DNA from: a virus
Lineage: Duplodnaviria > Heunggongvirae > Uroviricota > Caudoviricetes
Length of the DNA stretch: 40,519 nt
Virus record (IMG/VR): IMGVR_UViG_2872185964_000011
Reading direction: 5' to 3' (one strand)
The position numbers and the translations under genes were made by a program. A model generated the notes under the pieces. That model worked only from the letters and a program-made list of their open reading frames with translations. It was not told the origin of the DNA and ran no database searches. Positions within the stretch are counted from its first letter, which is position 1. Every line of letters begins with the position of its first letter. Positions 5,801-16,771 of this stretch are shown piece by piece.

Positions 5801-7864
5801 TCAATCTTTTTTGTAGTGGTACGCCTCAAAACCGCCAGCGTTCAGTGGGATATCGGGCGCCCATTCGGGGTCAGTGGAGAGAAGCGCGGAAAGCGCTTTA
5901 TCGTTGAAATCTTCTGTGTCAGGTGCTTCGGTGATCACCTCGTCGTGTACCGTCAGCACAATGCTGTAACCGGCATCTTCGATAAGCGGCATGTTTCCGG
6001 CCAGAATGTCGCGGGCGGCCGCCTGGGTGATGTTCTCCACCAGCTTTCCGCCGTAGGTTTTGAGTCGTTGCCATTTACGCGAATAAGAGTTAACCCCCAT
6101 GTAGGTGATATTCCCTTTTTCGATAACCGGAGACGGGTAGCATACAGCGCGTCCGGATGGTAGCTGTATGCGCAGCCACGCGCCATCGCGGCGGATTTTA
6201 AGATAACCGCAATACAATGTTTTTTGCGGTGTGGCGATTGCAGTGCGGACGGTGCGCTCCAGTTCGTACCAGAAATCACAGGTCGCGGGATGCGCCCGGC
6301 GCCAGAGACGTTTAAGTGAGTCGCAGGCGATAAATACCCGTTCAGAAAGCCCGTAGGTTGACTTGCGTTTAACCGATTCGTCGTACCAGCTTTTCGCCTC
6401 GCGGATAACATCGCGGGGAATGTTTGGTAGTGCGGCGTTCGCCAGCTCGTCGAGATCGAGACCGTAAACCAGTGCAAAAGTGATGAAGGCCGACACACCA
6501 CCACCATAACCCAGACCGAGTTCCATGACTTTACCGATCTGACGCATGTGTTTATCAACATCATCTGGTGCAATATCGAAAGCTTTTGCATACGCCAGTT
6601 TATATAAGTCCGGACCCGTTCCGGCGTCGTACTCTCTGAATGCATTCAGTTTCCATTCTTCTCCCGCCAGCCATGCCAGCATACGGCCTTCAATGTTCGA
6701 CAAGTCACTTACCACCAGCTTTTTGCCTGTTGGCGCGATAATGCAGCCACGTAACGCTGAACTGGTTAGTTCCATGATATTGTCAAACAGCAGGTCTGCA
6801 CATCCGGCTTTCAGTGCTTCGATGCCTTCGTCTATTTGTTCCTGTTTTAGTGAAGGGCGGGGAAGGTTCTGGGGCTGGAATAGCCGTCCGGCCCAACGAC
6901 CGGTACGTGACGCCCCGCAGAACTGTAGCGTACCGCGTAAGCGCCCGTCGTGGCTTACGCCTTTCATCAGTGCCTTGTATTTACTGGTGCTGGTAGTACT
7001 GGCCTGCAGGCGGATAGCCAGCAGTTCTTTCACGGCAGATGGTAAATCGGGGTCGGCAATACGACGTTCCAGAGTACTGCGTTGCATGTCTGGTAGCTCC
7101 ACACCGTAGGATTCAACAATGTGCTTAATCAACGCGTCTCGTTGTGTGGCTGCCTGCACTTCGCCATCAGTCATTTCCTGTGTACGCTTTGCCAGGCGCT
7201 TTTGTTCCTGGTCTACCGCGTCGATCGCAGCGCGTGCGAGTTCCACGTCCATGCAGACGCCCCGGTCATTGATCTGCTGATCACGATGCCAGAGCGCCAG
7301 TTCTGTCCCCTGATAATTCCACTTCGGCAGACGTTTATAGACTTCGCGCATTGCCTCGATATCCAGTCCGGCGTAAGCAACAAAGCGCCGCCATTCTTCC
7401 GGGTGGGTTTTGCTGGTGGCCCGGCGCAGTTTGCTGTTTTTCGGGCGTGGCTTACAGAACAGCTGGATCAGCGCTTTACCTTCTTTGTCCTTCGCTTTGT
7501 CTTGCGGGACGCCTAGTACTTCGCAGAGTTCCCCCAGAGACCCCGGGAGACCGTGCGCCAGCGCCTGCACCATTGTGTCGCGCCAACGTTCGACTGGCGG
7601 TGCCAGGCGCGGCATTGCATAACGCAGAACGGTGCGGTCGAAGTGAGAGTTATGGAAATAAAGCTGGGTTTCAGGGTCTGCGATTGCTTCGTATAAGCCG
7701 TGTGGAATACCACCACCGGCAGTGATATCCCACACGTTTACTGGCCCGTCGTTGATAGCCCATGCGAAAAGCATCACTTCAACGCCTTCGGCATACGCAT
7801 GGGTACCGTTCGTAATAGGGATTTCGCAATAGGTTTCCAGGTCGCCCCATAGTATATTGGACAT
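5801..7864 (-). CDS. family A DNA polymerase with N-terminal 3'-5' exonuclease domain
   Basis: 687 aa; exo motif [11 protein letters not shown]; polymerase motif [16 protein letters not shown], motif [17 protein letters not shown], motif C VHDEVI. Confidence 0.85.
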
Positions 7865-9156: not shown

Positions 9157-10457
9157 TCAGATGAGGTCTGCGGTTAGCGTATCGTCGGATACGTCGTCGA
9201 AATCATTTACAGGGTTGATATTGAGTGCGGGGCGTGGGTCTGACTCGGGAACGATGGTGGGTTTACCATCAGCTCGTGTTATCAGTGCCTCGACTTTTGA
9301 CCAACGGCGCGGACTGGCCTTTTTGATAAGTGTTTCGGCTTTTGTGGGGCTAATAAGTTTAAAGTCGAATACTTCTTCAGTTTTGTACCTGAACTGGTCC
9401 TTCAGAAGTGCGCGAGCTGCCTCTTCATCACTCCAGGCCCGGTTACCTTGTTTTCCTGTTACCAGTTTAAACCCCGGTACCGGATGTCCGGCATTGAGTT
9501 CATTGTGAACCCGGTCTCGTACTGCCTTTAGCCAGGATTCAATAAAGTCGGCCTGGCTATAGATCTCCGCAAGCTGCTCAATGGTTAACAGAGGTAAACG
9601 TGCGCTGGCATTGGTGATTATTTCGCTGACAGGCTTTGTCAGATCTTCAAAATCGCTGGCCGCTGTTTGTAAATGCTGCATTTTCTGGGCAGTGCAAATA
9701 GCTTTTGCTTTACAGAAGCGGCACTGTTTTTCTCCAGGTATGAAGTTTTCCAGCGGTAGTGTCTCAATGCCTTCGCATTCAGCAATATTGAGAACAAGGA
9801 TCGCACTGGTTGCGGCCTCCTGTGCCCGTTCACCGAACGCCTGGAGCTCTTCCACCGTCAGAGCCCACTCTGAAACGTGGTTAAGCCGCGGCTGGTGGAT
9901 GAACAGGCGCACCGTCTCGAAGTCGTACAGCATGCTGAATTGTTCGAGCGCACCCAGAGCATACAGTTGTAGTTGCTCATTTTGTTCTGCATCAATGCGG
10001 ACGCCTTTGCCATATTTCAGGTCGTGGATTTGTAATTCGCTACCAGCAATGATTATGCCGTCGGCAGTTCCGAAAGATTCTTCCACACCCGTTATATGTG
10101 AGAAATCAACACGTTGTTCAACCAATAGTTCATTATTCTGTGCAAGAGTCCAGACCGTATCAACATACCGGCCAACGGCTTCGACCATTTCATCATCCAC
10201 CTGTGGGCCGGATGTATCATCAGGATTTTCGCGAAGGGGTATGAGCCGAGAAACATAGAAACATTGCATCCGGCGTAGTGTTCCGGGTGGCTTTGCCTGT
10301 TTCGTAGAACTTTTTCAGCAAGCGCGTGCGCTGCAGTGCCCTCGATTGCAAAAGTTGTTTCTTTATCCGGTTGTGTGGCCTCCAGCGCCAGACTTCCTGG
10401 GCAGCGCATCCATCGATGCGCTGATGATGGAGAAAGTTGTGCGTGAACGTCTGGCAT
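9157..10457 (-). CDS. PD-(D/E)XK-type nuclease (DUF2800-like, from memory), reading frame broken near 10270-10330
   Basis: N-part [26 protein letters not shown]...[13 protein letters not shown]; C-part in the -1 frame with [12 protein letters not shown] and a [10 protein letters not shown] cysteine cluster. Confidence 0.6.
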
Positions 10458-13115: not shown

Positions 13116-15307
13116 ATGTCCGATAGCAAACCATGGGGAGCTACGCCTGATGAGTGGTTTCATTTCGACCTGGTATTGGGGAGAACTGATCATCTTCTGC
13201 CAGTTGTATGTAACCCCGGTGCGACCATATCCCCTGATAGTAAACTGAAAGCGCTGGGTAAGACGCCGAGTCGCTATAACCGGGACCGCCAGGTCACCGG
13301 TATTGCTCAATGGACCGGGCATGTTGTTACTGAGCATGATTTTGCCCGCTGGTCGAATGAACCGGATTATGGCATCTGCGTGCGTACAGGCCATGGCTGG
13401 CTGGCGCTGGACTGCGATAGCGAAGATGAAGACATTCAGGCAGATATTCGCAAAACACTTGTGCAACTTCTGGGTGAGTTGCCGCCGCGACGCTGGCGAG
13501 CAAACAGTAATAAGTGTCTGTATCTGCTGGCCGTTGATGGTGATTTCCGTAAGCGTATCCATCGCTTGGCGGGGATATGGGCATTATCGAGTTGCTGGCG
13601 AACGGGCAGCAGTTCGTTGCCTGTGGTACGCACAGCAGCGGCGCGCGTATTGAATGGGACGGCGGTCTGCCGGATGAACCTCCGGCTATTACTGGTGAGC
13701 AGCTTGAAACGCTGTGGCAGCGCCTGGCTGAACAACTCCCTGTGTCGGCAACCACCGAAGCGGGCAACACGAAGATGCGCGACCGTTCAGCATTCACGCC
13801 CGGCGCGACGGATGATACAGCTGAATATCTTGATGCCAATGGCTGGACGCTGCTGGATGGTGCAAACGGTGAACGATATATCCGCTGCCCGTTTGAAGAC
13901 GGCCACAGTAGCGGGGGCGATCCGACAAGCACAGTTTATTTTCCTGCGGGGACCGCGGGTTTTGAGCAGGGGCATTTTAAATGCCTGCATGCCAGTTGTG
14001 CGCATCGTGATGACGGAGATTTCCTTAATGCCATCGGGATCCGCAACGACGATTTCGAAGATCTGACCTGCACCGAAGTGGCGGAACCTTTACCGCTGCC
14101 GGCTTTCGAGCGTGATAAATGGGGGCGTATCGAGGCAACCATCAGCAACGCAGCCAAAGCAGTAGTACGCCCTGATTTTGTGGACATCGATATTCGCTTT
14201 GACCAGTTCCGCGACGAAATCATGTTTGCCCCTGCAGGATCCGGACAATGGCGGGCATTCACCGATGCGGATTATGCGCGCCTGCGCATCACGATGGAAA
14301 AGCGGGGATTTAAACCTGTTGGTCGTGAACTTATTCGCGATGTGGTGTTACTTGCAGCCGATGAACAACCATTCGATTCAGCGATCACTTGGCTGAACGG
14401 ACTGGAGTGGGATGGCGTGCCGCGCATCGAATGTTTCTACCATACGCACTTCGGTACCGCCGACACGCCTTATACCCGTGCGGTGTCTATGTACATGTGG
14501 ACCGCGTTGGCGGGGCGAGTACTGGAGCCAGGCATCAAAGCGGATATGGTGCCTATCCTCGTTGGTCCGCAGGGCTGCGGTAAGTCTTCCGGAGTGGAGG
14601 CACTGAGCCCTGATCCTGCGTTTTTTACTGAAATCTCTTTTGCCGAAAAAGACGATGATCTCGCTCGAAAAATGCGTGGTCGGCTGGTGGCAGAGATTGG
14701 TGAACTGCGCGGACTTAATACCAAAGAGCTGGAGTCAATCAAAGCGTTTGTGACGCGTACTCACGAAAACTGGATCCCGAAATACCGGGAGTTTGCCACC
14801 CAGTTTCCTCGTCGCCTGGTGTTCGTTGGTACCACCAATGAGGACGAATTCCTTGCGGACAAGACTGGTAACCGTCGCTGGCTCCCCGTGGAAGTGTCGA
14901 AAGTCGACGTGAAAGCGATAAAAAGAGATCTCCTTTTACTTTGGGCTGAGGCTCGTGAGGTGTTTCAGCGTCTGGGGGGTATCCAGTTCCGTGAGGCTGA
15001 ACAACTGGCAGCGAGTGTCCATGAACGGTACACCATCAAGGATGCTTGGCTTGAAACGGTAGAGAAATGGCTCGACACGCCCGACCTGATGACTAATGAA
15101 CTTCCGCGAAATTGCGAATTTTTACGCGCAAGTGATGTTTTGCGTGATGCGATTGGGCTAAATCCTGACCGCATCGGAAAACGCGAAGAAATGCGAATTA
15201 GTAATGTTTTGCAAAATTGCGGGTATAAGCGCGTTCAACGTCGTGTTGACGGAAAAATGACTCGAATTTTTGAGGCGGTGTCCCAACCTGTACCAGCTTC
15301 AAAATAG
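13116..15307 (+). CDS. replication initiation protein: primase-polymerase-like N-terminus plus VirE-like P-loop NTPase C-terminus; frame broken at G-run 13571-13574
   Basis: N-part with acidic LALDCDSEDED; C-part GPQGCGKSS Walker A and VFVGTTNEDEF Walker B-like; adding one G at 13571-13574 joins ...RKRIHRLAG to DMGIIELLANG... Confidence 0.75.
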
Positions 15308-15465
15308 AGGTTGGTACATTTTAACTAATTGAATTTAAAGGTCAGTACCAACTGTACCAACTGTACCAACCTAATTACTAAGAACCCCATATATATATAT
15401 ATAAGTCGCTTGGGGAAAAGGTTTGAAAAGAGCTGGTACAGGTGGGTACAGGCTGGTACAGGCCG
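15285..15465. repeat. array of eight GTAC-core repeats in two inverted tandem triplets flanking a (TA)7 tract; candidate replication origin iterons or regulator binding sites
   Basis: CTGTACCAAC-type units with GTAC cores at 15345/15354/15363, (TA)7 at 15390-15403, reverse-complement units CTGGTACAGG at 15436/15446/15456 spaced exactly 10 bp; extra copies at 15290 and 15314. Confidence 0.7.
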
Positions 15466-15590
15466 AACAAGGAATTTTTTGCACATAACAGCGTGTAATA
15501 AGCGAATCGGAACTGCGTTATCCACACCCACGGATAAACAAACGTGGTTCTCAGAAAATTTTTTCGTAGCAAAACGTAGAGGTCAGAGCT

Positions 15591-16025
15591 ATGCGTAATA
15601 TTCAACAGGTTTTAGAGCGCTGGGGTGGCTGGGCTGTCGATAGCAACACCACAGTGAGTTGGGCTCCAATAGCGGCGGGATTTAAGGGGCTGGTAGTCAG
15701 CAGCTCGCCTGGCAGGCTGAGTTGCTGCGACGATGATGGCCTGATTATCGATGCTTGCGTCTGTCGGCTGCAGCAGGTCCGTAAGCCTGAGGAACTGGAC
15801 GTCATTATGCTGTACTACGTCTACGGGTTAAGCAAACGTGAGATAGGGCGGCGGCGTCGCTGTTCTGAAGGATTTATCCGCCAGCAGTTGCAGGTAGCTG
15901 AGGGATTCATTGAGGGGTGTCTCTGCATGCTGGGTGTGAACCTTCAGATGGATCCTGAGGTCGAAATTCAAAGGGATGAAAAAAGTATTAGTGCGCTACG
16001 CAAAAACTGCGCTACGCTGGTATGA
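15591..16025 (+). CDS. late-gene antiterminator, Q-like (933W-type from memory)
   Basis: 144 aa starting MRNIQQVLERWGGWAVDSNTTVSWAPIAAGFKG with a CCDDDG motif; position directly upstream of lysis genes. Confidence 0.6.
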   Translation: MRNIQQVLERWGGWAVDSNTTVSWAPIAAGFKGLVVSSSPGRLSCCDDDGLIIDACVCRLQQVRKPEELDVIMLYYVYGLSKREIGRRRRCSEGFIRQQLQVAEGFIEGCLCMLGVNLQMDPEVEIQRDEKSISALRKNCATLV

Positions 16026-16304
16026 GTTGAATTTCTGACCTCAACGAAGAGCTCCAAATCATTGGGGCTTTTTTAATGCTCTATTCTCAGTAAAAGTTAA
16101 TAAAACAGGGTTTTCGTCGCGAAAAAACGCTATGCAGTTTTTGCCCTTTTTTATGCACCTTTTATTCACTCGAATTTCGTCATTCTGGACCACTTAAGTT
16201 GATTAAATAGGCCTTTCATCGCAAATCTATTGCGAGCGGTGATCGTGTGGTTCCTATAACGTACATTATGTTAAATAACCTTCTTTTTTAACAAATTTAA
16301 CAAG

Positions 16305-16328
16305 GTTTGCTATGGCGAACTTTTTTTT
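16305..16328 (+). terminator. rho-independent terminator candidate (tR'-like) between Q and the holin gene
   Basis: GUUUGC-UAUG-GCGAAC hairpin (one G-U pair) followed by eight U. Confidence 0.5.
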
Positions 16329-16429
16329 GTATTCAGGGCCCACCGAAGGACGGCTCATAACCCAATCCTACGGGCGTATACGCAGGGCCCGCCTTTCAAC
16401 AACACCCCGTAATGGCGGAGGTGGGAAGT

Positions 16430-16771
16430 ATGAAAATGCACAATGCTCCTCATTCCTGGCCTGACTTACTGGAACTCTTACAAAGTTGGTGGCGTGGAGA
16501 TACGCCGTTGGGCGCAGTGGTTATGTCGATTGTTATGGCTGGTTTGCGCATTGCCTATTTTGGCGGTGGCGGCGGCTGGAAACGAAAAACGCTTGAGATT
16601 TTGCTCTGCGGCGCACTGACGCTGACCTTTGCATCCGCTCTTGAGTATGTCGGATGGCCTAAATCGCTTTCTGTTGCCATTGGTGGTGGCGTGGGGCTGA
16701 TCGGTGTCGATGCTATTCGTGGGGCTGCAATGCGAGTAATCGGTAACAAATTTGGTAGCTCGAAGGAGTAA
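16430..16771 (+). CDS. S: holin, lambda S-like, with dual-start MKM motif
   Basis: GGAGGTG RBS; starts MKMHNAPHSW; hydrophobic helices and a charged C-terminus; overall resembles lambda S from memory. Confidence 0.75.
   Translation: MKMHNAPHSWPDLLELLQSWWRGDTPLGAVVMSIVMAGLRIAYFGGGGGWKRKTLEILLCGALTLTFASALEYVGWPKSLSVAIGGGVGLIGVDAIRGAAMRVIGNKFGSSKE

Follow-up and report, generated by a model that had tools for sequence, protein, structure and literature searches.

What do the short repeats do that surround the end of the primase-helicase gene in a temperate phage? We addressed this question for IMG/VR virus record IMGVR_UViG_2872185964_000011, a 40,519-nt stretch of caudoviral DNA (here called the window, and numbered from its first letter). 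Nine repeat units of 9–10 nt with a GTACC core lie within 15279–15461, in three groups (site A and arrays B and C) set around a (TA)7 tract. This cluster is most probably the replication origin of the phage, and of the 'rep followed by ori' type found in the satellites known as Staphylococcus aureus pathogenicity islands (SaPIs) and phage-inducible chromosomal islands (PICIs). We favour this reading, which draws on sequence comparisons, because the layout and position of the cluster match those of the experimentally defined SaPI origin (PMC9371898), and because the layout is kept in 97 of 103 homologous loci, in which the repeats covary with a predicted DNA-binding wing of the initiator protein and are exchanged together with it as one cassette.

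SaPI origins contain 6–12 iterons directly downstream of rep, with an AT-rich centre and at least two iterons on each side of it, running in opposite directions (PMC9371898). The window has the same arrangement directly 3′ of the open reading frame (ORF) of its initiator gene (13116–15307, plus strand). Array B (15343–15370) consists of three tandem plus-strand iterons at 9-bp spacing (cAGTACCAAC at 15343–15352, then TGTACCAAC at 15353–15361 and again at 15362–15370), and array C (15432–15461) of three tandem minus-strand iterons at 10-bp spacing (GCTGGTACAG at 15432–15441, GTGGGTACAG with one mismatch at 15442–15451, and GCTGGTACAG at 15452–15461). Both arrays read towards the central spacer, each on its own strand. 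The spacer (15371–15431; 61 bp, 69% A+T) is the predicted unwinding element, and contains CCCCA (15385–15389), the (TA)7 tract (15390–15403) and GGGGAAAAGGTT (15412–15423). Every defining feature of a SaPI/PICI-type origin that can be checked computationally was found in this element.

Site A (15279–15318) straddles the stop codon of the initiator gene (15305–15307). Its two plus-strand units, the degenerate TGTCCCAAC (15279–15287) and TGTACCAGC (15289–15297), overlap the 3′ end of the gene, and its inverted unit, GTTGGTACA (15310–15318, minus strand), lies just 3′ of the stop codon and forms a 12-bp palindromic pair with the unit at 15289–15297. An AT-rich linker, TTTTAACTAATTGAATTTAAAGGT (15319–15342), joins site A to array B. 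Taken together, the units start 28 nt ahead of the stop codon and extend to 154 nt beyond it, and overlap only the final 29 nt of the gene. The eight codons with which the initiator ends (SQPVPASK, 15278–15304) are simply iteron sequence, from the units at the 3′ end of the gene, read as protein; this tail changes with the class of iteron (for example, to EPPGTT for GGAACCACC), and in some relatives the gene stops before the first unit.

Much of this arrangement had been noticed in a sequence-only reading of the window, which proposed an origin here, and its three tandem units on each side, its (TA)7 tract and its two further copies over the gene end are all present. It had overlooked the inverted unit at 15310–15318. 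It had also described the two arrays as reverse complements of each other, which is right for their common core, TGTACC(A/C)A, although the match is inexact, and as helically phased. With the left array at 9-bp and the right array at 10-bp spacing, phasing holds for the right side only. The proposal of an origin itself is supported by the homology of the helicase domain of the initiator to SaPI1 Rep1 and the SaPI-like layout, together with the conservation, covariation and cassette exchange described below.

The repeats are strongly concentrated at this site. The motif GTACCAVC occurs 12 times on the two strands of the window, compared to 2.58 times expected, and none of 100 shuffles reached 12; 7 of the 12 matches fall within 170 bp (15290–15459). 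No second iteron cluster, of the kind represented by crr in phage P4, was found in the 40.5-kb window, where the remaining GTACCAVC matches are isolated except for one palindromic pair. This pair (14825–14836) is made of overlapping iteron-like half sites, GTTGGTACCACC, and falls within the helicase-coding part of the gene, 450 bp upstream from the array. GC content drops to 0.32–0.37 across 15290–15440. Ranked by ease of melting, the 20-bp window over (TA)7 falls in the top 0.04% of all 20-mers of the 40.5 kb, whereas 60-bp windows at the spacer reach only the top 6.5%.

Is the layout a property of this phage alone? Homologous loci were drawn from species genomes, viral contigs and GenBank phages, and the layout was scored as detected if at least four copies of one 8-mer were present, direct at +20 to +110 and inverted at +100 to +215 after the stop codon. 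It was detected 3′ of the stop codon in 97 of the 103 loci. The same detector found it in 0/103 loci at each of three upstream shifts, in 0/101 at a downstream shift and in 4/515 shuffled sequences. The common plan starts with two to three plus units that overlap or abut the stop codon and one minus unit about 20 nt further on (nearly all relatives have the '2 plus, 1 minus' arrangement at the stop codon), followed by an AT-rich linker, two to three plus units at 9-nt spacing, a spacer, and two to three minus units at 9–10-nt spacing. Direct units lie at +36 to +90 and inverted units at +125 to +170. The plan was also found in Hamiltonella phage APSE-8, Yersinia phage YeP4, Acidovorax phage ACF1 and in Burkholderiales and Nitrosomonadales contigs, and in a looser form in Caulobacter phage Jess A, so that it spans gamma-, alpha- and beta-proteobacterial phages.

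The DNA between the repeats is conserved too. The linker between site A and array B is kept across iteron classes, with similar TTTAACTAATTGATTTTAAA segments in five other loci (L008, L063, L070, L014 and L011). Spacers are 55–69 nt long in most of the loci shown (95 nt in APSE and 77 nt in L111), and in these loci their AT content is 0.61–0.77, compared to 0.41–0.58 in the gene. The spacer core, ACTAAGAACCCCA(TA)nAGTCGnTTGGGGAAAGGTTA, is kept in 80 of the 103 loci and across 10 iteron classes, which suggests from its sequence conservation that it has a sequence-specific role, for example as a priming or loading site or as the site of a host factor. The spacer segment GGAAAGGTT recurs as far afield as a Burkholderiales contig (L007). 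A T-rich motif, AATTTTTTGCAC (15473–15484, plus strand), lies to the right of array C; it is an uncertain member of the origin, and its position is kept even in distant relatives. In 82/103 loci, the final inverted iteron is followed on its right, after 10–20 nt, by this motif or a variant of it, either as at least four Ts followed by (G/T)CA (40/103) or as TTTATTGC(A/G)GG (42/103), compared to 0–10/103 in controls. It was seen in the Burkholderiales contig, in L006 and in YeP4. A −10 element matching it was not found.

The repeats change in step with the initiator protein. Units have the form T-N4-C-N-A-C-C, in which the variable positions differ by lineage and do so in all copies of a locus together. 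Across 99 loci with at least 12 iteron classes, each class corresponds one-to-one to a form of a 7-residue motif in the protein, G-K-x-x-[RK]-x-[WFY], which sits about 12 residues before the end of the conserved protein. GKMTRIF (17 loci; also GKVTRIF and GKMVRIF) goes with TGTACCAAC, the class of this window, of APSE and of some Xenorhabdus and Photorhabdus loci. GKKMRIF goes with TGTCCCAAC (4 loci), GKK[CSR]K[VLI]W with TGGAACCACC (27 loci), GKVQRVW with TGTAACCAC (6 loci), GKVLKVW with TGTATCCAC (5 loci), GKLMKVW with TGTTACCACC (7 loci), GKQIRVW with CTAGACCACC (5 loci) and GKQQR[VI]F with CTAGACAACC (9 loci); GKKCKVW pairs with TGGAACCAC. Other classes include TGTAACAACC and TGAAGCCACC, plus further ones. 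In the Enterobacterales, the final aromatic residue of the motif tracks position 6 of the unit, F or Y occurring with A and W with C, with APSE as the sole exception, and three matched pairs of classes differ solely at this residue and at this position. The beta-proteobacterial proteins do not follow this rule. Overall, the correspondence suggests that the specificity of each initiator matches its own iterons.

A pair of loci, L037 and L041, shows how these classes are exchanged. Outside an interval that runs from −76 to +193, counted from the stop codon, their DNA is about 100% identical, and this block of about 270 bp comprises exactly the wing codons and all of the iterons. Within it, all 8–9 repeat copies and the wing have changed, while the spacer core stayed conserved across classes. 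As the repeats and the wing changed jointly and the DNA between the repeats did not, linkage alone fails to explain the pattern.

What kind of protein is the initiator? The gene encodes a primase-polymerase (PrimPol) domain, a VapE (SF3 helicase) domain and a predicted C-terminal winged helix. The Pfam family VapE-like_dom (PF05272) matches residues 427–638 (E = 3.6e-60), and a PF09250 Prim-Pol domain is recorded in homologues. A phmmer search aligned residues 393–657 with 7pds_A, SaPI1 Rep1 (E = 7.7e-34), the only relative of solved structure; PDB entry 7PDS is the complex of Rep1 with DNA (PMC9371898). By sequence, the initiator thus appears to be a homologue of a characterised self-loading helicase, Rep.

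In SaPIs, Rep binds the iterons through its C-terminal winged helix, and one hexamer per side has been proposed (PMC9371898). Sequence similarity between the C-terminal domain of our initiator and that of Rep1 was not detectable. The presence of a winged helix is a prediction from structural modelling. The domain (15020–15304) was modelled alone, because the alignment was shallow and a model of the full-length C-terminal half had a poorly predicted ATPase core. AlphaFold gave the final 90 residues three helices and one beta-hairpin, with a predicted local distance difference test (pLDDT) score of about 80. The conserved stretch REEMRISNVLQNC forms the third helix, which is the predicted recognition helix (about 15179–15217), and the variable motif GKMTRIF (15251–15271) forms the second strand of the hairpin, the predicted wing (15224–15277). 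We infer a division of labour from this model, in which the conserved 3′ half of the unit (C-N-A-C-C) is probably the target of the conserved recognition helix, and its variable 5′ half probably that of the variable second strand of the wing.

The proposed mechanism, in which binding, melting and double hexamers are likewise inferred, is as follows. The winged-helix domains of a hexameric initiator would bind the 9–10-bp iterons, T-GTAC-C-A-AC. As arrays B and C face each other, two initiator assemblies would be placed head to head, one on each side of the 61-bp spacer. The (TA)7 tract would then melt, and each helicase ring could load itself onto single-stranded DNA. The fused PrimPol domain would prime, and the family-A DNA polymerase of the phage (5801–7864) would extend. 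The inverted pair of site A over the stop codon may be an auxiliary binding site, and possibly acts as a weak terminator in this window.

Several observations weigh against this interpretation. Searches of the literature, including by iteron sequence, found no publication on this origin and no experiments on close relatives. The spacing differs between the two arrays (9 and 10 bp), and the units are longer than the penta- or hexanucleotide iterons of SaPIs. The wing codons lie less than 80 bp from the iterons, and the two could covary in part because they are physically linked in a single recombination block. In the GenBank record of APSE-8, a 'putative origin' is annotated at a different place, the interval between cI and cro. 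Finally, the initiator gene of the window is itself frameshifted.

With respect to APSE-8, the annotated origin (L001 514–614; LR794148.1 12959–13059) was assigned solely by the skew-based program originX. Judged by its sequence, the iteron array that follows the VapE gene (L001 3075–3367) is a better origin candidate than the originX site. As to the frameshift, the gene is identical to the intact 730-residue gene of NZ_CP116169 (L002) except for one missing G, in the run after 13570 (GGGG in the window versus GGGGG in NZ_CP116169; frameshift site 13567–13577). This 1-bp deletion splits the gene into two ORFs, 13116–14066 and 13577–15307, and an in-frame ATG at 13577, directly after the slip site, starts the downstream ORF of 576 residues. 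The frameshift could mark a pseudogene, a homopolymer sequencing error or a slippage-prone site. If it is not a sequencing error, the origin would be intact and its initiator may be defective.

Could the repeats instead control transcription? On this account, which we regard as unlikely, they act mainly between the early operon and the antiterminator gene Q: the hairpin of site A terminates or pauses transcripts from pR, protein bound at B and C forms a roadblock that times Q, and replication starts elsewhere. The region does lie on the sole rightward path from cro and the primase gene to Q. RNA folded from 15289–15318 is stable (−20.8 kcal/mol, z = −5.1), with a 12-bp hairpin followed by UUUU, and was flagged as terminator-like in our scan. 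The inverted pair of site A is complementary in every iteron class, as would be so for any class because both of its arms are iterons. The U tract that follows the hairpin (UUUUAACUAAUU) is short, however, and the T run is missing in APSE, L041, L005 and L073, so conservation does not extend to the terminator. Many relatives have a gene other than Q downstream and nevertheless keep the same array. Nor would termination account for the covariation with the wing, for arrays B and C or for the AT-rich spacer, which is conserved. A true origin could have a transcriptional role as well, and this would be at most secondary. The sequence-only reading had offered a regulator of Q expression as its alternative; this is not needed, because the repeats track the C-terminus of the primase-helicase and not the downstream gene, and they are unrelated to the cI/cro operators, which we had considered as occurrences of the same motif. 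The repeats may nevertheless have a secondary effect on read-through into Q.

Still less probable, in our view, is that the C-terminus of the primase-helicase binds the arrays for autoregulation, copy control (handcuffing) or incompatibility and not for initiation, in the manner of P4 crr or the inc iterons of plasmids. The covariation demonstrates a relationship between protein and site, not initiation, and site A overlaps the end of the initiator's own gene. Phage P4, moreover, needs a second iteron cluster, crr, besides its ori. In the 40.5-kb window, however, no other cluster of the motif could serve as the real origin, which makes copy control or incompatibility without initiation unlikely, and validated SaPI and PICI origins take this very form, with convergent units on both sides of a conserved (TA)n spacer. 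Lastly, the idea that the cluster is a chance or selfish repeat without function (a miniature mobile element, or products of slippage, from which (TA)n tracts and short tandem units can arise) is effectively refuted: the enrichment is far beyond that of shuffles, and gamma-, alpha- and beta-proteobacterial phages share the layout while all copies of the unit change in concert.

Other elements were looked for around the putative origin and set aside. An Rfam scan of 15100–16500 gave no family match in the intergenic region, and a scan for sigma-70 promoters gave one weak minus-strand match, no more than in shuffles. An exact integration host factor (IHF) consensus, WATCAANNNNTTR, is present in the linker between site A and array B in only 6/103 loci. 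The potential hairpin CCCCA...TGGGG in the spacer folds no better as RNA than shuffled sequences (z = 0.11). A perfect DnaA box occurs in just 21/103 relatives, in just two named iteron classes, and is therefore not a conserved origin element. The sole perfect box of the window, TTATCCACA (15518–15526), lies 57 bp to the right of array C and is enclosed by a hairpin at 15509–15551 (−15.7 kcal/mol, z = −3.6); it may belong to the leader of Q.

The phage that carries this candidate origin is complete and temperate. The window encodes an integrase, a family-A DNA polymerase, an exonuclease, Q, holin, lysozyme, TerS/TerL, portal, major head protein, tail sheath and tape measure. The order of the early region is a LexA-like repressor (minus strand), a cro-like helix-turn-helix protein, the 730-residue 'VapE domain-containing protein', the 283-bp intergenic region that bears the repeats, the antiterminator Q and the lysis genes. 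This region is present in 141 of 5426 complete E. coli genomes and is chromosomal in every case. PICIs are satellites of about 10–15 kb without a full set of virion and lysis genes; as the window carries the complete phage gene set, the origin would be of PICI type, yet the element is not a PICI. The family-A DNA polymerase gene (5801–7864, minus strand) and a DUF2800/PD-(D/E)XK-type exonuclease gene (9157–10269, minus strand) lie in a leftward operon, as in APSE. As the phage has its own polymerase and exonuclease genes, its replication is probably largely independent of host initiation and elongation factors.

With these results, a widespread enterobacterial prophage family and the APSE phages of aphid symbionts gain a concrete candidate origin that can be put to the test. 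The natural pairs of wing and iteron, on near-identical backbones, are possible orthogonal replicon parts and a model for the reading of DNA by the wings of winged-helix proteins. A wider picture can be drawn only tentatively, and we would not yet bet on it. In this picture, the last ~25 codons (the wing) and the ~200-bp array would form a swappable specificity cassette with a simple, partly readable code, and at least a dozen mutually orthogonal pairs of initiator and origin would exist on near-identical backbones, diversified by competition or incompatibility among co-resident phages and satellites. Initiator binding might also couple late expression to the onset of replication, and the 'PICI-specific' design might be a general phage design from which that of the satellites was taken.

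How does this putative origin compare with known systems? In lambda-type origins, the O protein binds iterons that lie inside the O gene, and DnaB is recruited through P. The window shares with lambda the iterons beside an AT-rich region, their location in the early rightward operon of a temperate phage, and specificity modules that differ among related phages. In contrast to lambda, the initiator belongs to another family and brings its own helicase and primase, with no recruitment of DnaB through P, and the iterons lie 3′ of the gene in two convergent sets; the origin is thus not of the lambda type.

In P4, the alpha protein unites a primase, an SF3 helicase and, at its C-terminus, a winged helix for origin binding in one polypeptide, and recognises type I iterons, TGTTCACC. 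P4 requires two cis sites, ori and crr, which are several kb apart. The single-polypeptide architecture of the initiator is common to P4 and the window, and the octamer iterons of P4 are similar in composition to units in our set (compare TGTTCCCACC in L025 and L031). The type of primase differs, and the window has one cluster only, in place of the ori and crr pair. The archaeal plasmid pRN1 encodes ORF904, a PrimPol and SF3 helicase replication protein, and an essential cis sequence lies directly 3′ of its gene (PMC4234260). pRN1 thus resembles the window in combining such a protein with a cis element directly 3′ of the gene. It differs in being an archaeal plasmid, and is likened here by protein type and position.

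PICIs of E. coli have the same organisation as those of staphylococci; pri-rep-ori of EcCICFT073 drives plasmid maintenance, and the design was called unique to PICIs (Fillol-Salom et al. 2018, PMC6092414). We located the EcCICFT073 origin in CFT073 (L121), where two CTGTCTACC units after the stop codon are followed by one inverted unit, three units at 9-nt spacing and inverted copies. This layout is nearly identical to that of the window, and the host species, E. coli, is the same. The gap between the direct and inverted arrays is shorter, however, at about 25 bp, and Pri-Rep is a D5_N/DUF5906/Pox_D5 protein for which BLASTP found no similarity to the PrimPol-VapE protein of the window.

The closest comparison is with the SaPIs themselves (SaPI1 Rep1 and SaPI5 PriRep5; PMC9371898, and Ubeda et al. 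cited there). In both cases, the origin is directly 3′ of the rep ORF, iterons in opposite orientation surround an AT-rich centre, and the initiator is an SF3-type self-loading helicase with a C-terminal winged helix, which is predicted here and has been shown to recognise the iterons in SaPIs; in SaPI5, as in the window, a primase is fused to Rep. The differences are that the window is a complete Gram-negative temperate phage and not a satellite, that its units are of 9–10 bp compared to the penta- and hexanucleotides of SaPIs, that it has an extra inverted pair over the stop codon, and that its spacer has a conserved sequence core beyond AT richness. The kind of element is thus already well known. 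What is new is that this design, which had been ascribed to PICI satellites alone, occurs in complete proteobacterial phages; new, too, is the breadth of its natural specificity classes.

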